Source: an uncultured Candidatus Saccharibacteria bacterium (GTDB lineage Bacteria; Patescibacteriota; Saccharimonadia; Saccharimonadales; CAYLGV01). From it: 64,000 nucleotides of DNA. A program made the translations under genes and the position numbers. The stretch lies in assembly GCA_964394925.1 (NCBI GenBank), contig CAYMZG010000003.1, positions 40,414 to 104,413 on the forward strand, written 5' to 3'. The notes beneath the pieces are model-generated. The model saw only the letters and a list, made by a program, of their open reading frames with translations, had not been told where the DNA came from and ran no database searches. Shown one piece after another: positions 6,285-33,514 of the stretch. Each line of letters starts with the position of its first letter. Position 1 is the first letter of the stretch.

Positions 6285-6618
6285 TTGGGATAAAACCCGT
6301 AACAGTTGGTGGATCACCACTGAGCTGTATGGCACTCAAAAAATACGCACCCTCCCACCTATGACGTTGAACCCATATTTCGGCGGCGAATTGCATTTGT
6401 TTGAGTTTTTGTTCGGTTAGGTAGTCAAAACCCGAGCCGTATTCATCGTTACTACGATACTTACATTCCACAAAATATTTGACTGGTCCTTTTTGGGCAA
6501 CAATATCAATCTCACAGCGCGGGGTCTTCCAGTTTTGTTGCAAAATAATGAAACCCCGTGAAATAAGGTATTCGGCGGCGGCATTTTCGGCACGATGACC
6601 AATGTCTGTTGTATCCAT
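6277..6618 (-). CDS. yraN: YraN family (UPF0102) endonuclease-like protein
   Basis: 113 aa reading GHRAENAAAEYLISRGFIILQQNWKTPRCEIDIVAQK...FVECKYR, typical of UPF0102. Overlaps the pepN 3' end by 8 nt (convergent). Confidence 0.85.
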   Translation of the reverse strand: MDTTDIGHRAENAAAEYLISRGFIILQQNWKTPRCEIDIVAQKGPVKYFVECKYRSNDEYGSGFDYLTEQKLKQMQFAAEIWVQRHRWEGAYFLSAIQLSGDPPTVTGFIPII

Positions 6619-6624
6619 GTGGCC

Positions 6625-6633
6625 ATGGTAACA
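6625..6633 (-). promoter_or_regulatory. extended -10 (TGtTACCAT) 6 nt upstream of yraN ATG; leaderless candidate
   Basis: Minus strand reads TGtTACCATggccacATG. The same 9-mer occurs upstream of the DUF475 gene. Confidence 0.45.
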
Positions 6634-6652
6634 AAAAGTTATTAACGAATTA

Positions 6653-7219
6653 TTAAATGTTCATACTTTTTTGAACGGGCTTAAAACTTTTTCTATGTAT
6701 CTCTGTTATGCCATGCAGCTGCATGGCTTTAACATGCGCTGCCGTGCCGTAACCAACATGTTGAGCAAAACCATAGTTGGGGTATTTTTCATCCTGATCA
6801 ACCATGTAGGCATCACGGCGAACTTTGGCAATAATACTGGCCGCGCTTACTTCAGGGACAAACGCATCTGCCTTCACCAGGCACTGAACACGTGTATATT
6901 CTGGCGGACAGTAATTATAGTTTCCATCCATAATAATCTCGTCGTTCAAACTGACCCCAAGCTCATCGAGAGCACGACGCACCGCAAGACGCATTGACTC
7001 CGTTAAGCCAAGGGCATCAATTTCGGCAGGCGAGACCCAGCCTTCGCCCCACTGACAGCAGGCCTCGAGCTCAGTGGCAAACTGTTCCCTGGCTCGTTTC
7101 GTAAGTTGTTTTGAATCAGTAAGCCCGTTTGGTAGTGCTCTGTCGGCTTGCAGTGCAACTACCAGGAGCGGTCCTGCCCAACAACCTCGTCCAACTTCAT
7201 CGACCCCAATTAGTGTCAT
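6653..7219 (-). CDS. rnhB: ribonuclease HII
   Basis: 188 aa with GVDEVGRGCWAGPL catalytic N-terminus and DSKQLT motif. Confidence 0.93.
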   Translation of the reverse strand: MTLIGVDEVGRGCWAGPLLVVALQADRALPNGLTDSKQLTKRAREQFATELEACCQWGEGWVSPAEIDALGLTESMRLAVRRALDELGVSLNDEIIMDGNYNYCPPEYTRVQCLVKADAFVPEVSAASIIAKVRRDAYMVDQDEKYPNYGFAQHVGYGTAAHVKAMQLHGITEIHRKSFKPVQKSMNI

Positions 7220-16105: not shown

Positions 16106-16423
16106 TCAGTTTGTGGCGGGTTTATTGGCCGGCGGTACTGGCTGTTGGTACTGCGTACTTGTTTCAATGGTGTGTGTTACATTCTCTGCAATCCGCCCAA
16201 TAAACGGCACGTTGCTAAAGAGCGACAGTGCCCAGAGCAGAAAGGCGACTAGTATGGTCGCACCCAAGACACCACCAAAGCCGGCCAACATGCCTTTTAT
16301 AAAGCTCATTTTGTAAGCTTTTTTCTGGTCTAAATAGCCGCTCTCATAAATTGATATGAGCATGCGCCCCATCTGTTCAGGAGTGGGCTGCTTTGGTTCT
16401 TGCTTAGACGCTTTTTTTATCAA
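16106..16423 (-). CDS. small membrane protein, DUF5665-like
   Basis: 105 aa reading SFIKGMLAGFGGVLGATILVAFLLWALSLF...PFIGRIAE. The track start is a TTG overlapping the YtxH-like gene by 20 nt; ATG 16372 is an alternative. Confidence 0.6.
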   Translation of the reverse strand: MIKKASKQEPKQPTPEQMGRMLISIYESGYLDQKKAYKMSFIKGMLAGFGGVLGATILVAFLLWALSLFSNVPFIGRIAENVTHTIETSTQYQQPVPPANKPATN

Positions 16424-16811
16424 GGTATTTCTTTAGGTGTTCTGTTGCTTTGTTAACTTCATCAACGGCATTTTGCAGATCATCATCATTGGCCTCACCT
16501 TCATGAATCGCCGTGAGGATTTCACGAGTTTTTTGGCGCACTTCAATAGCTTGCTCGCGCAGCTTCTCAAATTCGGCACTCGCCTTGCCTTTCGTTTGCT
16601 CGGCCAACTCACCAGCTTTTTGGATCAATGCATTTAGTTCAGCATTAACATCTTTGAGTCGACGCTCAGCTTCCTTCTTGGCCTTAACGGCAGTATTCTT
16701 AATGTCTTGGCGAGTTTCCTTGCCACTCTTTGGAGCGGTCAAAATACCTGCTAAGTAGCCTGCAACACCTGCAACTAACGCACCAACTGCAACATCTTTT
16801 TTAGTAACCAT
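16404..16811 (-). CDS. YtxH-domain protein
   Basis: 135 aa with an N-terminal helix (GALVAGVAGYLAGILTAPKSGKETRQDIK) followed by coiled coil. Confidence 0.8.
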   Translation of the reverse strand: MVTKKDVAVGALVAGVAGYLAGILTAPKSGKETRQDIKNTAVKAKKEAERRLKDVNAELNALIQKAGELAEQTKGKASAEFEKLREQAIEVRQKTREILTAIHEGEANDDDLQNAVDEVNKATEHLKKYLDKKSV

Positions 16812-27106: not shown

Positions 27107-28804
27107 CTAGGTTGTACTGACCGGGTGGCTGCTTCTGCTAGTATCAAGTTCGATGTGCCTGCCTAGTATCTGTGCAATCTCATCCTCATTGATAGACAAC
27201 GCAGCAATGGGGTTGCTTTTGCATATATCTGCCGTTTTTTGCAACGTCTCCTTCTGGCGTTTGTAGCTACTATCAATACTCGTATCGTGTTCTTTTTGTA
27301 TATCCATAAGCCGCGCCAGCAAGCGAATTCGCTCAGATGCAAAATGAATTTGCTCGAGCTTTTCAAACACCGTCGTTAAGCCTTGGTTGAATTTCTGTCG
27401 ATGACGTGACTGGTCAACTGCATCGAGCATCCTAACACGTGAATCGCTTTCCATCTCTGCCTCAATAATGTCTAGCTCGGCATGTAACTGTAGGTAGGGT
27501 GTTAACTCTGAACTATCCGAAGTTGATTCAGCAATACATAGGCTTGAGGCCTGGTCGAATAGACGAAGAATATTTGAGTCGTGGCGTTCTGGGATCGCAT
27601 AGTCTCCCCCAAAGCGCGGTATGTAAATAATGATTCCGGCGTTAATCTCATCGGCATAAGATTGTTTTAGCTCATCACTTGATCTCTCGGAAGGCGGAGG
27701 CAAAGATATGTGATCACCAAAACACTCCGAAAGAGCACGGAGGTATGCATCGGCTCTTGCCGAATCCTCACTTGGGGGACTGGTACCAATGTTAGATAGC
27801 AATGACGATGTACCTTCTCTCGAAAGCACACCGTTTACTCGATTAAGCATTGCATCGTCAACAACACACTGTGGATACCGTAGATATGCAAATGCTAACT
27901 GCTTCGCGGTAAAACTCTGTTTGTTTCGAATATCCAGGAACTCAACGACTTTTTGGTCAACATGTCGCTTTCCTTTCCTGAGCTCCCTGCCATTTACCAC
28001 TCTCGTGTTTTCAGTTTTGCATCTACTGTAGGTGTCGCGGTATATTTCAAGCGCCTGCTTTGCTTCTGGATCAACTGCAGCTAACTCATCGGCATAAGCT
28101 TCTTCGGGTGTTCCAACAAGCTTTCGAGCATGCTGGTACAACAAATGTTGAAACCGCACAGTTGCACTCTTCTCGAGGTGGTTTTTTGTAACTGAATCAT
28201 TGACCCCCGAGAACAGATTTTTATCTTGGAGTAGGATTGCAATCGCTCGCGAGTTTGCGAACAGATTCATGCCATGTTTCATCTCAACCATCAGATACTC
28301 CATCAGATCGCGAATATTGGCACGCTCTTCGGCATCTTGGCGCAAGTCTCCAAGCTTGAGGAGCACACTGAATGCAGCATCTTTGTCACAACCGAGCGCC
28401 TGATCAAGCAAGTCGAGCTTATCGTCATAATCGGTGATATCACTCACCAGCCAACCGGCGATATCGCCACGGTTGCGTCGCATTTCAAACGCTACCTTGT
28501 GGGTGACAAGGCTGGAACGAAGGCAAGCAAGCTGCTTGGCTACATGTATGGCTCTTTCACTCTCCAAAAAAGGCGCCGTTTGCTGGACTTCTTGAGCCTC
28601 AGCTAGTTGGGCGTCAATTTCTTGAATCCCGGTTATAAAAAGAGCTTCTTGATGCTCGTCATAAACTGAAGTGGGAAGAAATTGTCGTTCGACGTAATTA
28701 TCTACCCATAGGCTACCATCGTCGGCAACAGGATTAAATCCGTCAGCATTGAGGACCTGGGGTCCCAGCTCCTCAGTGATAAAAACAACTTTTTCAAGTG
28801 ACAT
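27107..28804 (-). CDS. hypothetical protein, 565 aa, predicted mostly alpha-helical
   Basis: Long uninterrupted ORF with no motif recognised and its own extended -10. By my hand count roughly a third of its Arg codons are AGA/AGG. Confidence 0.75.
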   Translation of the reverse strand: MSLEKVVFITEELGPQVLNADGFNPVADDGSLWVDNYVERQFLPTSVYDEHQEALFITGIQEIDAQLAEAQEVQQTAPFLESERAIHVAKQLACLRSSLVTHKVAFEMRRNRGDIAGWLVSDITDYDDKLDLLDQALGCDKDAAFSVLLKLGDLRQDAEERANIRDLMEYLMVEMKHGMNLFANSRAIAILLQDKNLFSGVNDSVTKNHLEKSATVRFQHLLYQHARKLVGTPEEAYADELAAVDPEAKQALEIYRDTYSRCKTENTRVVNGRELRKGKRHVDQKVVEFLDIRNKQSFTAKQLAFAYLRYPQCVVDDAMLNRVNGVLSREGTSSLLSNIGTSPPSEDSARADAYLRALSECFGDHISLPPPSERSSDELKQSYADEINAGIIIYIPRFGGDYAIPERHDSNILRLFDQASSLCIAESTSDSSELTPYLQLHAELDIIEAEMESDSRVRMLDAVDQSRHRQKFNQGLTTVFEKLEQIHFASERIRLLARLMDIQKEHDTSIDSSYKRQKETLQKTADICKSNPIAALSINEDEIAQILGRHIELDTSRSSHPVSTT

Positions 28805-28926: not shown

Positions 28927-29532
28927 CTAACCGTTATGCTTATGGGGATGGCTTAGGAACCACTGATTACTGAGAGACTTGGTATTAATGTCGGCGTAGT
29001 CTTTGTCGAGCATTTCAATGACTCGCTTTACAAGCTTGTGAGGATCCGTGTCAAAAATGACCATATCTTTGTTGATTGGCTCGAGTCGTTCCATGAGTTC
29101 TGGAATAATATCGGCAGTACCCCCGCTTCCAAGAAGTACGCCACATGGCATATGTGATTCAAGGGCAGTCGTAAACTCATGCAAGCTGCCGAAGCGTCCA
29201 CCAACGGTAATTACCGCATCGCTCGACTGCACCAGGTGTACATCTCGGCCAACGTAGTGCATGCCAGTGAAGTTAACAAAGTCGAAAACACCAATTGGGA
29301 GCCGATACTTGGCGACATGTTCTCGCAAACTACTGGCGGGTGAAAAGCCAATGCTGATACCCCCGGCCTCTTTTGCAGCTTTAGCCGCAAAAAAAGGCAG
29401 ACCAACGGTTGCGCCCGTGGTGATCATATGTCCAGATTTGGCAATTTCGCGGCCAACCTGCTCGGCTAGCTCGTGGGCACCTTCTACCGTCTTCCCAGAA
29501 GCGGCCCCTGATACACAAATAGCATAATTCAT
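28927..29532 (-). CDS. TIGR00725 / LOG-like (SLOG superfamily) Rossmann-fold protein with degenerate nucleotide loop
   Basis: 201 aa reading ICVSGAASG..., TTGATVGLPFFAAKAAKEAGG..., SDAVITVGGRFGSLHEF (compare the family GGGxGTxxE). Its ATG overlaps the upstream stop (ATGA). Confidence 0.65.
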   Translation of the reverse strand: MNYAICVSGAASGKTVEGAHELAEQVGREIAKSGHMITTGATVGLPFFAAKAAKEAGGISIGFSPASSLREHVAKYRLPIGVFDFVNFTGMHYVGRDVHLVQSSDAVITVGGRFGSLHEFTTALESHMPCGVLLGSGGTADIIPELMERLEPINKDMVIFDTDPHKLVKRVIEMLDKDYADINTKSLSNQWFLSHPHKHNG

Positions 29533-30788
29533 AGGGCAAACTCCATGTCCTCACTTAGTGCGCTCACAAAGCCCATCTGTTGGTGTAGTTGCTGTAACAA
29601 TTGACGCTCGAGAGCACTTTGGCCCACATAGCGCCGATATAGCTCATTCCAGACGGCCTCACGGTTATGATACGCAATTCTGCGCTCAAACGGCAGATGG
29701 TTAACAAGGTTAATGGCGACATCCATGAGATTAAAACTAATTGGTACCTGTTGCTCTTGCGGTAATGCAACATAATCGGTGTTATGCCAAAAATGAAGGG
29801 CTGGCTCAAGGTGAAACAGGGTGTGCTCGGCCTTGCGGTAAGCCATATCCTCTGGCTGAACATGTGGCTGGAATATCTCTGGGTGCTGACTCGCCCCTTG
29901 TGATCCATAGTAGTGATGCACAATGCGCCAGTGAATGGGCTGGCCCGCTACCGTAGCATGACTCGCCGCCGGAGCAGTAATGTCGTTAACAAGCCGTTTC
30001 GAGAATTCGGGATGCAAATGATGCAGCTTCCAATGGGTTGCCTGGCTACGGATTTCATTGATGTAATGGAGTACGAGCAACAGGCTAACTAGTGTTACAC
30101 CTGGCAGATCGGTCGACGGTACTGGTAGCACGGCGATTGCTGCCGCCTCTGGCGCGTGCAGTATATTCGTGTGATGTGTTAGCGCGTAGGCCTTACCAAT
30201 GTATGCCCACTGGCCCTTGGTGAGGTACATCACTTCAACATTGCGATTTTCAAAGTCATTACTTTTCAACTTCTTGTAGCTATCGATGAATTTGTGCTGC
30301 CAGGTGGCTGGCTCAGTGTGTCGAGCAACGGTTATCAACTGCAATGGTGATTCACGCTTGAGCATGGAATCAACGGAACGGTAGTGTAGGCTCTTCATTA
30401 GCTGTTTTGGTGGCGTGGCTTTTAGTAGTCTTTTTGCGGCCGCAGGCTTCATGGCCCAGGCGTGCTTTGGGGCACCCATTCGCTCAACCAGTCGAACAAC
30501 AAGGGGTAGTATCACCTCTGGATTCGTTGGCTCAGAAGCGCCAAGTTTGTCTGCCAAGAATCTATCGTGGAGTGCAGCCAAATTTAGTAGAGCATGATAC
30601 AGCTCGCGCGGCGTTGTGTCGCTGGGATCAAGCCCAAGCCCACGCATTTTCATGTGAATGCTACCGAATATTTCACCTGTTAAACGTAAGTCTACACCAG
30701 GATCACCACTGGAGCGCTCCAATCGAGTGATCATCTGTTTCATGACCTGCTTGTCGGTACTCGTTAGCTCTGCGAGAAGCTTACACAC
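29529..30788 (-). CDS. hypothetical protein, 419 aa, His/aromatic-rich C-terminal half
   Basis: GTG start with AAGGA 12 nt upstream. Clusters HWKLHHLHPEF, HWRIVHHYYG, HFWHNTDY and AYHNRE. No family recognised. Confidence 0.7.
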   Translation of the reverse strand: MCKLLAELTSTDKQVMKQMITRLERSSGDPGVDLRLTGEIFGSIHMKMRGLGLDPSDTTPRELYHALLNLAALHDRFLADKLGASEPTNPEVILPLVVRLVERMGAPKHAWAMKPAAAKRLLKATPPKQLMKSLHYRSVDSMLKRESPLQLITVARHTEPATWQHKFIDSYKKLKSNDFENRNVEVMYLTKGQWAYIGKAYALTHHTNILHAPEAAAIAVLPVPSTDLPGVTLVSLLLVLHYINEIRSQATHWKLHHLHPEFSKRLVNDITAPAASHATVAGQPIHWRIVHHYYGSQGASQHPEIFQPHVQPEDMAYRKAEHTLFHLEPALHFWHNTDYVALPQEQQVPISFNLMDVAINLVNHLPFERRIAYHNREAVWNELYRRYVGQSALERQLLQQLHQQMGFVSALSEDMEFAL

Positions 30789-30885: not shown

Positions 30886-31884
30886 CTAAAATGGCTCGGC
30901 CTTGTACCACTCAGGGGCCTTTTTGAGGAAATTGCCCAGCTCACGCTCATTAAGCAAGCCCTCTTGAGCACCGGTATGCTGAACAACATTCATCGAATTA
31001 ATTGGCGCCCACTGAAGCGCACCTTCGAGGTTATTGCCTTGAATGAGAGCTGCCACAAAGGTGCTGGCAAACGCATCCCCAGCTCCTGTCCGCTCAAACG
31101 GTGGCGCCGGATCGGGGTATGGTGGCATTTTGAGACGCTGATTGCCATCAGATGCATAAGCGCCAGCCGGCCCATCCGTTATGACGACTGTCTTGGCGCC
31201 AAGTTCATGGAGCTTATTCAACAGATCATGCACATCGTCATAGTTTCCGCCTGTTACCTGAACTGCTTCTTCGCGGTTCAAAATGAGCACAGTCGTTCGT
31301 TCGTACAGCTCTTTAAGGCGTTCCTTACCTGCTTCAATTTGGAACGTGCCAGGCTGAAAAGCAAACTTTACCTCGGGGTTATCTTTGAGCCAATCTGACA
31401 CTCGGTCGTGATAGGTATCAAGCGCATTTTTACTAATGGAACTAAAGTAGATCCACTTTGGAATATCATTACTACGGAACCGTGGCCAGTGATAATCATA
31501 TTCTTCGTGCTTAATAAGTATGGTGCGCTCTTCTTTGTACCAGAGCACATAGTGATAATTACTAATCTTCTTGGGATTAATGTGTACGAAGCGGGTATCG
31601 ACATCTTGTTTTTTTAAAGCACCGATGATGTCTCGGCCAAACTGGTCGTCGCCAACATTACTGATAAGCCCGCTGTTAAGCCCAAGGCGTGAAAAGCTGA
31701 CAGCCGCATTGGCGGCATTACCAACACCCTCAATAACTTGGGCATAGTCAAAAGGCACCTTCATGCCAAACGGCACGGCCAGAAACTTGCCATGTTCGTT
31801 TTCAAACGTGCTGGCACGGTCATCGAATAGTTTTATGAAAGCATCGGTAACCACATCACCGATCGCTAAGACGTCCAAGCTCAT
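30886..31884 (-). CDS. PfkB/ribokinase-family carbohydrate or nucleoside kinase
   Basis: 332 aa with an N-terminal GDVVTD strand, GVGNAANAAV (GG-like motif) and a C-terminal TGAGDAFASTF anion-hole/catalytic motif. Confidence 0.88.
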   Translation of the reverse strand: MSLDVLAIGDVVTDAFIKLFDDRASTFENEHGKFLAVPFGMKVPFDYAQVIEGVGNAANAAVSFSRLGLNSGLISNVGDDQFGRDIIGALKKQDVDTRFVHINPKKISNYHYVLWYKEERTILIKHEEYDYHWPRFRSNDIPKWIYFSSISKNALDTYHDRVSDWLKDNPEVKFAFQPGTFQIEAGKERLKELYERTTVLILNREEAVQVTGGNYDDVHDLLNKLHELGAKTVVITDGPAGAYASDGNQRLKMPPYPDPAPPFERTGAGDAFASTFVAALIQGNNLEGALQWAPINSMNVVQHTGAQEGLLNERELGNFLKKAPEWYKAEPF

Positions 31885-31906
31885 ATTAGTTTTCCACCCC
31901 TTTTAT

Positions 31907-31930
31907 CATGCTTATGCTAAGCATAGCATG
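31907..31930. other. imperfect palindrome/hairpin (CATGCTTATGCT-A-AGCATAGCATG) between the heptad-repeat gene and the PfkB kinase
   Basis: Read directly. One unpaired base. No U-tract. Confidence 0.3.
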
Positions 31931-31966
31931 GCACACCCAGGTTGACTAGTAATTCACAGCCGTTTA

Positions 31967-32458
31967 TCAAGTGGTTTTGAGGGCGTTACGAACCTTCTTG
32001 ATGATTCGATCGTGTGCGTCAGCTCGCTTTACTTCGGCTTTTACGATGTGTTCAACGTTATCAAAGCGCAGATCTATCGCATCGAAACGTGTGTCTATCT
32101 GGTCAAAGCGCAGGTCCATCTCATCCATGCGCGCATCCATGGCGTCAAACCGGACGTTCATAGCATCGAAGCGCTCGTCCATCGCATCGAAGCGCTCGTC
32201 CATGGCATCAAACCTCTGGTCCATCGCATCCATGCGAATGTCCATGGCATCCATACGGACGTCCATTTGGTCAAAGCGGAGGTCCATGGCGTCAAAACGC
32301 GCGTCCATGGCATCAAAACGTCGGTCGACGGCTTCGAAGCGGGCGTCGACAGCTGCAAAACCATGTGCCACCTGTTGGCCAAATTCTTCGAGGGCGTCAT
32401 CAATGTTTGTTTTAATAATTGCGCTTATGGCAACCAAATCTTCATTTGTTAAGCTCAT
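31967..32458 (-). CDS. coiled-coil protein made of 14 tandem D-x-R-F-D-A-M heptads
   Basis: The track ORF is longer (32563), but ATG 32458 has GGAGG 7 nt upstream. The 163-aa product reads MSLTNEDL...DARFEAVDRRFDAMDARFDAMDLRFDQMDVRMDAM...DLRFDNV. Confidence 0.75.
   Translation of the reverse strand: MSLTNEDLVAISAIIKTNIDDALEEFGQQVAHGFAAVDARFEAVDRRFDAMDARFDAMDLRFDQMDVRMDAMDIRMDAMDQRFDAMDERFDAMDERFDAMNVRFDAMDARMDEMDLRFDQIDTRFDAIDLRFDNVEHIVKAEVKRADAHDRIIKKVRNALKTT
32054..32347 (-). repeat. 21-bp tandem repeat x14 (coding, heptad periodicity)
   Basis: Units such as catcgaagcgctcgtccat. Two adjacent units at 32163-32203 are 20/21 identical. All six frames are nearly stop-free here. Confidence 0.9.
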
Positions 32459-32596
32459 GTAAGAACCTCCGTTAGATGATATAACGCGTTGTTGTGTATC
32501 ATCGTGGTTGCTCGCATTGCCTTGCCCTATAGTCATACAAACTAGTATAGACTCAGGGCACAAGAAAATCTGTTGTGCTTTAAGCGTTTTTTGGTG

Positions 32597-33514
32597 TTAT
32601 AAACTGGCGCGCGCCTTGCCGGCCGAATTGAACATGTCAATCTTTTCTTCCACAACTTTGCTGACAGCATCAACGACAGTATCCATAAGTTTTACGACTG
32701 CGAATTCTGAAGGGTTATCAGCCAAGACTTTCTCAAGGGTGGTTCGATACGCCACGCGCATATCACTGTTTATATTAATCTTACTCACGCCAATTTTAAC
32801 CGCGTCTACAAAGTAGTGCCCAGGAGTGCCGCTACCGCCATGCAAACTAATGTTACAGTCAATGGCCACCCGAATCCGCTTAAGTAGTTCGAGGTCTAAT
32901 TTTTTAGGGACAGGGTATGAGCCGTGCAAGTTGCCGATGGCAGCAGCAAATGTGTCGATACCAGTAGCTTCCACGAACTGCCGAGCTCCCTCCGGCGTAC
33001 TAAACGATTTTTTGATCTCTTCGTAATCAAACGCCTCTTTAAAGACGTTTGAACCACCACCAAAATAATGCGGCTCGCTTTCTACCAAAGCACCAGTCAA
33101 CTTGGCATAGTTCACTATTTGCTTAGTCTCAATAATGATGTCTTCAACGGGTGCATCCTTGCGGGCCTGGCTAATGTCGATATGAATAAACTCAAAACCA
33201 GCCTCAATCCCTGCTATGGCTGCTGCGACCGTTGGGCTGTGATCGAGGTTCACGTACATTTCTACGCCGTATTCAGCCTTATAGTTGTCTACCATGTCAC
33301 GAACATTATCAATACCGAGGGCTTCGACTTCCCCGTGGCTCACTTCAACAAGCAGTGGGGCTTTCTTGTTGGCGGCAGCATGCACCACCGCTTTGAGGGT
33401 TTCTTGGTTGTCGAGATTGAAAGCGCCCAGGGCAAAATGTTCAGTCCGTGCCCTCGCCATGGCATTACGCGCATCTTCACAGTTCTTTCGGATTTGTTTT
33501 AACGTTAATCCCAT
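32597..33514 (-). CDS. fba: class II fructose-bisphosphate aldolase
   Basis: 305 aa with FNLDNQETL, HLDH-like NLDHS, SLHGGSG and KININSD. Confidence 0.92.
   Translation of the reverse strand: MGLTLKQIRKNCEDARNAMARARTEHFALGAFNLDNQETLKAVVHAAANKKAPLLVEVSHGEVEALGIDNVRDMVDNYKAEYGVEMYVNLDHSPTVAAAIAGIEAGFEFIHIDISQARKDAPVEDIIIETKQIVNYAKLTGALVESEPHYFGGGSNVFKEAFDYEEIKKSFSTPEGARQFVEATGIDTFAAAIGNLHGSYPVPKKLDLELLKRIRVAIDCNISLHGGSGTPGHYFVDAVKIGVSKININSDMRVAYRTTLEKVLADNPSEFAVVKLMDTVVDAVSKVVEEKIDMFNSAGKARASL

Follow-up and report, generated by a model that had tools for sequence, protein, structure and literature searches.

Coiled coils can be N-capped by beta-layers of three residues, which carry the motif [aliphatic]-A-T-K-[polar]-[DE] (Hartmann et al., eLife 2016, PMC4786415). 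This motif marks the stalks of DUF3782 proteins, relatives of these that lack the nuclease (Tcar0761, for example) and DUF1640 proteins; the published family takes in coiled coils that stand alone, with very regular repeats and beta-layers as N-caps, the DUF16 protein MPN010 has a comparable N-terminal beta-layer, and all of the beta-layer proteins identified were homotrimers save a monomeric SLH domain (PMC4786415). The stalk of the adhesin YadA is a solved parallel trimer (PMC3539135). Here we analyse a complete gene of 163 codons, found by open reading frame (ORF) listing and translation at 31967..32458 on the minus strand of a 64-kb window (the whole stretch of DNA examined, positions 1-64000) from an uncultured Candidatus Saccharibacteria bacterium, and compare its product, hereafter the window protein, with these systems. 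Our best explanation as a whole, which we hold with rather more confidence than doubt, is that the window protein is an accessory helix built from RFD heptads that self-assembles as a parallel, probably trimeric, rod and has a structural role.

An earlier note on this DNA gave no strand; the gene is read from the minus strand, as are all of the features described in this paragraph. The ORF ends with a stop codon at 31967-31969 and starts with an ATG at 32456-32458, a position that also fits homologues opening with M-[AS]-L-T-x-E-D-L. Direct reading of the sequence places the GGAGG Shine–Dalgarno sequence mentioned in the earlier note at 32466..32470, 7 nt 5' of the ATG. An N-terminal head (residues 1-37, MSLTNEDLVAISAIIKTNIDDALEEFGQQVAHGFAAV; 32348..32458), common to several homologues, is followed by 14 tandem 21-bp units (32054..32347) encoding residues 38-135 as heptads of the form D(e)-x(f)-R(g)-F/M(a)-D(b)-A(c)-M/V/I(d), and then by a C-terminal tail (residues 136-163, EHIVKAEVKRADAHDRIIKKVRNALKTT; 31970..32053) that is helical, basic and non-repetitive according to the translation and AlphaFold2. 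From residue 38 onward the heptads read DARFEAV DRRFDAM DARFDAM DLRFDQM DVRMDAM DIRMDAM DQRFDAM and then, to residue 135, DERFDAM DERFDAM NVRFDAM DARMDEM DLRFDQI DTRFDAI DLRFDNV, so that the run of 14 D-x-R-F-D-A-M heptads reported earlier for residues 38-135 of a 163-residue product matched the minus-strand translation exactly. The third heptad position is Arg in 14/14, the fourth is Phe in 11/14 and Met in 3/14, and the seventh is Met in 10/14, Val in 2/14 and Ile in 2/14; the first and the fifth are each Asp in 13/14. The composition of the window protein is acidic (pI 4.5, with 31 Asp and 18 Arg).

AlphaFold2 in single-sequence mode predicted one unbroken helix for residues 5-162, without a hairpin and with a mean predicted local distance difference test score of 93.3, which corresponds to a rod of roughly 23 nm. 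With Phe placed at a, the register is F(a) D(b) A(c) M(d) D(e) x(f) R(g), and canonical heptad spacing holds inside this predicted continuous helix, a being Phe or Met and d being Met, Val or Ile in 14/14 heptads. The hydrophobic residues of the head (residues 1-37), as read from the sequence, appear to be spaced 3-4-4 in a hendecad-like manner that runs into the heptads. Neither a signal peptide nor a hydrophobic stretch long enough for a transmembrane helix was found in the 163-residue sequence. As modelled, the window protein is essentially one soluble, strongly acidic alpha-helix of about 160 residues. A single alpha-helix domain was rejected as a candidate, since no Arg–Asp pair at i+3 or i+4 is available to stabilize the helix by itself and a continuous F/M seam is present. 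With Arg at g and Asp at e beside this seam, a parallel homo-oligomeric coiled coil is the natural reading. The coiled-coil interpretation put forward earlier, with a Phe/Met core and a/d spacing, is thus sound, given the uninterrupted helix.

We then considered whether the 163-residue ORF is a genuine protein-coding gene, and the sequence argues strongly that it is. Tandem Repeats Finder described the array with a period of 21, 12.3 copies and 69% matches (score 145-157), and the units have a mean pairwise identity of 66% at the DNA level and 64% at the protein level. When neutral drift was simulated by random mutation of the consensus unit until the same DNA identity was matched, the protein identity was only 38 ± 3.5%, with a maximum of 48.5% (n=2,062). 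Pairwise differences between the units numbered 118, 40 and 295 at codon positions 1, 2 and 3 respectively (the variable f codon being left out), and the invariant Arg is encoded by four codons, CGC, CGT, CGG and AGG. The third-position bias, together with a protein identity above the neutral level, indicates that the array is old and under purifying selection in this frame, and thus neither a young expansion nor non-coding DNA. That there is no gene, the array being a non-coding 21-bp tandem repeat open by chance or the true product coming from an ORF in another frame, is hardly credible to us. Four further ORFs do overlap the array, and the ORF listing located all of these spurious frames that the earlier note had counted, at 31971-32462, 32012-32452 and 32014-32163 on the plus strand and 32158-32403 on the minus strand. 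However, their products are Ser/Arg/Lys- or His/Val-rich nonsense without homologues, and it is only in the frame of the 163-residue ORF that the third-position bias and a protein conservation far above neutral are seen, along with the GGAGG Shine–Dalgarno sequence and a non-repeat N-terminal head homologous to the heads of other proteins. An assembly artefact, named earlier as something that would undo the observation, is very unlikely because Logan contigs from two other sequencing runs (SRR13287418 and SRR13287419) match the window over the array with 100% identity, one of them also crossing both of the flanking junctions.

The earlier note had proposed a search for the DxRFDAM heptad in other genomes, and this yielded thousands of matches in bacteria and archaea. 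A word-indexed search of a 90%-clustered database gave 977 proteins at an expectation value (E) <=1e-3, and an exhaustive search of 1.84 billion 50%-identity representatives gave 8,830 at E<=1e-3 and 970 at E<=1e-10. The named sources of these proteins include Actinobacteria, Acidobacteria, Firmicutes, Proteobacteria, Patescibacteria and Asgard archaea. The consensus of 2,230 heptads from 242 relatives was D(80%)-x-R(89%)-F(75%)-D(71%)-A(45%)-M/V/I(86%), percentages that are biased because the relatives were picked by similarity to the query. Heptad numbers per relative had a median of 9 and a maximum of 21, and 18/242 relatives had at least 14, which places the window protein with its 14 heptads in the top 8% for length. 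Judged by this heptad, the window protein is one of the RFD-heptad coiled coils, a very large group whose bacterial and archaeal members are scattered across the taxonomy. The core chemistry is not unusual, contrary to what had been thought at first: a very large set of prokaryotic repeat proteins has D-x-R-F-D-A-[MVI] as its consensus, and Pfam DUF7310 and DUF3782 capture this set in part.

Members of the group occur as free rods, as membrane-anchored DUF1640-like proteins and as stalks before PD-(D/E)XK nuclease domains. The stand-alone proteins (DUF7310-type: P0033, P0014, P0005, P0036 and L086-L165) have a heptad, D-x-R-F-D-A-[MVI], identical to that of the window protein and, like it, are small, soluble, acidic and all-helical with a variable heptad number; many share the window-type head M-x-L-T-x-[ED]-D-L-x-A-I, whereas the C-terminal tail of the window protein is absent from most of them. 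Close relatives of the window protein had been pre-annotated as PF23991 (DUF7310), mostly on faint matches, and the window protein itself scored 38.2 bits against this family (E=2.1e-9), a borderline result under the 40-bit gathering threshold. The same RFDAMD stalk precedes the PD-(D/E)XK domain of P0009, which passes the Pfam thresholds for DUF3782 and PDDEXK_10 and represents the stalks of the DUF3782 endonucleases. The window protein has no nuclease domain, and its DUF3782 match reached 16 bits against a cut-off of 24.4 and covered residues 71-89 only. Thermosinus Tcar0761 (PDB 5APZ) is built from MATKDDIAN nonads forming alpha/beta layers, whereas the window protein consists of canonical heptads with at most one N-terminal beta-layer.

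In the DUF1640/CCDC90B/MCUR1-like proteins P0019, P0038, P0044 and P0089, the order of elements resembles that of the window protein, [LV]-A-T-K-x-D-L being followed by an RFD/KFD stalk. These proteins, however, combine a DUF1640-like N-terminal globular head and the RFD stalk with a C-terminal transmembrane helix as membrane anchor, and the window protein has neither head domain nor anchor of this kind; it did not match PF07798, so that the motif-plus-stalk arrangement alone is in common. A PDB search with P0044 returned nothing useful. The Mycoplasma DUF16 protein MPN010 (PDB 2BA2), a small cytoplasmic trimeric coiled coil from a reduced genome, can be likened to the window protein, and its N-terminal beta-layer and hendecad segments to the candidate motif and hendecad-like spacing of the window head. 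However, it lacks an RFD heptad array, we found no evidence of common descent with the window protein, and the DUF16 match of the latter was 29.9 bits against a cut-off of 40. Thus, where the earlier note had allowed that the repeat might turn out to be a known named family with an assigned function, named DUF families do exist, but none of them has an assigned function.

Assignment through Pfam, NCBIfam, PHROGs or PADLOC was also tried and rejected, as it gave sub-threshold matches of coiled-coil type that are useless for function (for example DUF7310, DUF16, a GTA head-formation protein, ssr2422, SMC/Rad50 and DruC, plus three PHROGs without an assigned function). A whole-protein sequence search of the PDB was rejected likewise, yielding generic coiled coils (tropomyosin and HA2) at E>0.006. 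A literature search on DUF7310 and on the structure 6H9L found nothing in the library searched. No relative was present in IMG/VR or among GenBank phages, and plasmids gave one weak match; a phage or plasmid origin was rejected on these grounds.

The head may provide a further link to the beta-layer proteins. The start of the window protein, M-S-L-T-N-E-D-L-V-A-I, aligns with M-A-L-T-K-[ED]-D-L-Q-A-I of many small relatives, and the head is shared with P0033, P0014, P0125, L090, L124, L112, L152 and P0294. P0033, a protein of 113 residues with about eight heptads, is the closest by this region and has the entire 45-residue head in common with the window protein. The C-terminal tail weakly resembles the ...KKLEFKAGIKTT tails of P0294, from Patescibacteria, and of L152. 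P0294 (L166:6001-6291) has an ITNEDL head and a ...KTT C-terminus in common with the window protein, and its locus, which adjoins an IS200/IS605-type Y1 transposase (neighbour 6428-7126) and intein-containing genes, is a variable region.

A candidate N-capping beta-layer motif is formed by residues 2-7, S-L-T-N-E-D (32438..32455, minus strand), followed by Leu8. Compared with the beta-layer consensus, the Thr, the polar residue, the Asp and the following Leu fit, but the Ser, Leu and Asn do not; the homologues that share the head read A-L-T-K-[ED]-D-L. Among 232 relatives, 23 had related beta-layer motifs 5' of the RFD stalk, where shuffles predict 0.12, and 39 had a looser beta-layer pattern there, where 2.3 are expected. 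A profile built from the head and the first heptads matched the trimeric YadA stalk 3H7X best among PDB entries (E=1.5e-4) and also matched 6H9L (E=0.0038), a trimeric beta-layer structure with ATKEDIEAL repeats for which three chains are deposited. In the YadA stalk (PDB 3H7X, 3H7Z, 3LT6 and 3LT7), the segment ...LDNRLDKLDTRVD is in the same D(e)-x-R(g)-h(a)-D(b)-x-h(d) register and reads ...F-H-Q-L-D-N-R-L-D-K-L-D-T-R-V-D. However, the YadA core is Leu/Val and that of the window protein Phe/Met, and the match spans about 2-3 heptads. YadA is, moreover, a secreted adhesin anchored in the outer membrane, with a head and a beta-barrel, whereas the window protein has no signal peptide, passenger head domain or C-terminal four-strand beta-barrel anchor and so does not qualify as a YadA-like trimeric autotransporter adhesin.

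Next, the heptads were compared with the Kammerer trimerization motif R-hxxh-E, which has Arg at g, Ile/Leu/Val/Met at a, Leu/Ile/Val at d and Glu at e (PMC3653964). The window heptads have the Arg at g in 14/14, but e is Asp in 13 and Asn in one and never Glu, a is Phe in 11/14 and d is Met in 10/14; the strict motif is present in 0/14 heptads and there is a resemblance only. Because beta-layer motifs are enriched before RFD stalks, YadA 3H7X and 6H9L are matched and the heptads are Kammerer-like, a parallel homotrimer with an N-terminal beta-layer cap is the best-supported model, which by analogy with these structures we put at roughly even odds. The Phe/Met seam might instead drive a dimer or a higher bundle, a tetramer or pentamer like a 'Phe-zipper' and possibly with a central channel, and we regard this as a real though less likely alternative. 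It would fit the Phe at 11/14 a positions and the Met at 10/14 d positions, the lack of the strict motif in all heptads and the partial beta-layer match, and Arg–Asp pairs between g and e' suit dimers equally. On the other hand, the solved YadA stalk, which has this same D-x-R-h-D-x-h heptad, is a trimer, beta-layer-type heads are enriched before RFD stalks, and trimers are formed both by DUF3782-type coiled-coil constructs (Tcar0761) and by DUF16 MPN010 (PMC4786415).

Next, we asked how the number of heptads varies. Four pairs of relatives with identical flanks were found to differ by whole heptads: L086 and L088 (205 and 177 residues) by four, L091 and L100 (167 and 153 residues) by two, and L095 and L106 (176 and 169 residues) as well as P0279 and P0310 (92 and 85 residues) by one. 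Further metagenome proteins (L089, L092 and L093) also have identical flanks and whole-heptad differences. These proteins directly show rod length to be polymorphic in the group, where it evolves in heptad steps. For the window protein, a near-identical protein of different length was not found in 5.8 billion clustered proteins, in which the best match had 68% identity over 61% of the query; a metagenome scan returned no protein above about 60% full-length identity, and there was no orthologue in 80 Saccharimonadia loci anchored on the fructose-bisphosphate aldolase gene fba. No length variant of the window gene was detected either, the three assemblies all having 14 units.

The near-identical 21-mers of the earlier note correspond to units 8 and 9 (DERFDAM DERFDAM; 32159-32200 in our register, minus strand), which the pairwise identity matrix showed to be identical at 20/21 positions, whereas other adjacent units share at most 17/21. 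The recent unit duplication suggested on this basis may hold for that one adjacent pair but not for the array as a whole, which is old, with 66% unit identity and synonymous codon diversity. Copy-number variation, also suggested, is seen in relatives as steps of one, two or four heptads, but not in the window gene, for which three assemblies agree. It is improbable, in our judgement, that the array is a rapidly length-variable locus of the contingency type, growing and shrinking by slippage or recombination so that rod length would differ from strain to strain. Units 8 and 9 and the relatives with identical flanks are what such a locus might leave behind, but the mean unit identity of 66%, the limit of 17/21 for all other adjacent pairs, the 14 units in all three assemblies and the lack of a near-identical protein of different length among the 5.8 billion argue against it. 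A simple-sequence contingency locus was rejected for the same low unit identity and the single 20/21 pair. Diverged units, agreeing assemblies and the lack of a length variant together suggest that the change in length is slow and evolutionary rather than a switch.

We also examined the genomic setting. The gene lies between those for a class-II fructose-bisphosphate aldolase (fba; 32597-33514, minus strand) and a PfkB kinase (pfkB; 30886-31884, minus strand), and the surrounding sugar-phosphate block also holds a split transketolase, rpe, rpiB and gapdh. The best matches of the aldolase are all in Saccharimonadia (TM7) genomes, with 72-87% identity, and 80 such loci anchored on fba were compared. 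In most of these, no more than roughly 100 bp separate the fba stop codon from the start of pfkB, and an RFD-repeat gene was found in 0/80. Comparison of the junctions showed that the upstream part of the insert, from the fba stop to the gene start, is 138 bp long (32459..32596, minus strand) and contains no consensus promoter and no sigma-70-like site, whereas the 82-bp spacer before pfkB (31885..31966, minus strand) keeps the relatives' pre-pfkB element (…AGCATAAGCATG…GGGGTGG). The absence of an RFD gene from the 80 loci and the retention of the conserved pfkB leader mark the segment of roughly 700 bp as a lineage-specific insertion. By this comparison, the gene is an accessory insertion without a demonstrable link to sugar metabolism.

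It could be argued that the window protein works together with the products of the sugar-phosphate genes on either side, perhaps as a scaffold or as a regulator whose gene is transcribed along with fba and pfkB, since the gene has the same orientation as both, the spacers of 138 and 82 bp are short, and no recognizable promoter of its own or strong terminator was found. This is very improbable and is largely refuted by synteny: the gene is absent from the fba–pfkB junction in 80/80 related genomes, other lineages hold unrelated small genes there, and homologues elsewhere stand in unrelated contexts. The earlier note had placed the gene inside a sugar-phosphate block, and its flanks are indeed fba and pfkB, but in view of those 80 loci the position does not carry a functional meaning. 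Unrelated small inserts occupy the same junction in L025, L072, L007, L011, L079, L045 and L030. L025 and L072 have homologous helical proteins of 88 and 105 residues, L007 has a 93-residue membrane protein, L011 a 283-residue ORF on the opposite strand, L079 genes for HAD and transaldolase proteins, and L030 and L045 blocks of 3 kb. The fba–pfkB junction of Saccharimonadia thus looks like an insertion hot spot.

The conserved element directly 5' of pfkB was seen in the relatives L004, L007, L049 and L059 (…TGATAGACTAAGC.TAAGCATG…GGGTGG), and it extends over the final codons of fba in several relatives. Its counterpart in the window is an imperfect palindrome, CATGCTATGCTTAGCATAAGCATG (31907-31930, given in the minus-strand orientation of the gene). 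The element is a candidate promoter or operator for pfkB.

In the TM7 genome UBA5152, a 30-codon ORF (MTMVLTKDDLGAIKTIVDENTEMRKALQAV; L072:3069-3161, plus strand) with a good Shine–Dalgarno sequence (AAGGGAGGG) lies just upstream of pfkB; it has an L-T-K-D-D-L-x-A-I head like that of the window protein, without a heptad array. A scan of 941 kb of Saccharimonadia sequence for ORFs with the head motif found this mini-ORF alone, apart from GatC, which is unrelated and of known function. No DNA similarity between the L072 and window inserts was detected beyond the short head-coding stretch, and a common origin of the two inserts was rejected for this reason; the mini-ORF may represent a relic or a progenitor, or the resemblance may be coincidental. 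In another Saccharimonadia genome, a 106-residue coiled-coil protein (MTNNVNKDDLKVL…VDERFNKLKARMDEFDLKLDKL…; L033:821-1141, plus strand) is encoded beside an inorganic pyrophosphatase; its homology to the window protein is weak (E=7e-6 in a local search), and it has only 2-3 RFD-like heptads.

Horizontal transfer could not be argued from composition and was set aside: the guanine plus cytosine (GC) content of the gene is 50.8% against 48.1% for the window, and at third codon positions it is 57% against about 50% for the neighbours, differences that are too weak. Clustering over 81 loci found no neighbour family that recurs outside single lineages, and the contexts of P0033, P0014, P0036, P0294 and P0310 were uninformative.

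Elsewhere in the window, two ORFs downstream of the sugar block, at 27107-28804 (565 residues) and 29529-30788 (419 residues), both on the minus strand, have no Pfam match at E<=1e-5, and a SLOG cluster-4 (LDcluster4) protein is encoded between them at 28927-29532. A motif scan also brought up a 135-residue ORF at 16404-16811 (minus strand), with an MVTKKDV start, a hydrophobic helix and a Lys/Glu-rich region resembling a coiled coil; it appears to be unrelated to the RFD protein. No tRNA gene and no Rfam family at the gathering threshold was found in the 64-kb window, across which the GC skew is mildly negative.

Taken together, these observations can be brought into one scheme. Phe/Met at a and Met/Val/Ile at d would form a continuous hydrophobic seam, with Arg at g and Asp at e placed for salt bridges between helices. 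Given such a seam and such charges, a lone helix would not be stable and should self-associate as a parallel coiled-coil rod about 23 nm long, most likely a homotrimer in which S-L-T-N-E-D would form an N-terminal beta-layer cap as in the related prokaryotic stalks. Rod length in the group shifts as whole heptads are gained or lost, the heptad sequence itself being held by selection, and in the Saccharibacteria lineage studied here the gene was inserted into the normally tight fba–pfkB junction. In the cell, the window protein most likely serves a structural role, as a spacer or scaffold of defined length, with the conserved head and the variable basic tail contacting partners, as far as the architecture allows it to be judged.

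Several points weigh against this explanation. Designed Phe-rich cores favour tetramers or pentamers. The S-L-T-N-E-D of the window protein fits only about half of the published beta-layer consensus, and with Asp at e, mostly Phe at a and mostly Met at d, the strict trimerization motif fails in every heptad. All Pfam and NCBIfam matches of the window protein lie below the curated cut-offs. The similarity across the group is largely driven by the repeat, and part of it could have arisen by convergence instead of common descent. Neither the 80 metagenome loci nor four contexts that were looked up showed a conserved gene neighbourhood, and the proposed structural role is drawn from architecture only.

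A wider proposal, which we consider distinctly improbable, is that the RFD-heptad proteins form a functional class of their own, trimeric rods that stand free and can be tuned in length ('molecular rulers or spacers'), with core and surface selected for a specific property and a long version serving an episymbiotic role in Saccharibacteria. If so, the stacked Met layers might bind soft metal ions, the Asp-lined polyanionic rod might bind cations or mimic nucleic acid, and the unusually long version of 14 heptads and about 23 nm might have been acquired for the episymbiotic life style.

By itself, the gene is a modest finding, one more coiled-coil protein in a tiny genome, and for annotation it teaches that a position between fba and pfkB, which looks like an insertion hot spot, offers no operon clue. 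What gives it wider meaning is that selection keeps one near-invariant heptad, D-x-R-F-D-A-M/V/I, across thousands of proteins of differing architectures in bacteria and archaea. Clean, long, soluble and repeat-perfect, the window protein would be a convenient model for the oligomer state and the packing of a natural Phe/Met core, and also for the N-terminal beta-layer cap and the variation of rod length in heptad steps.

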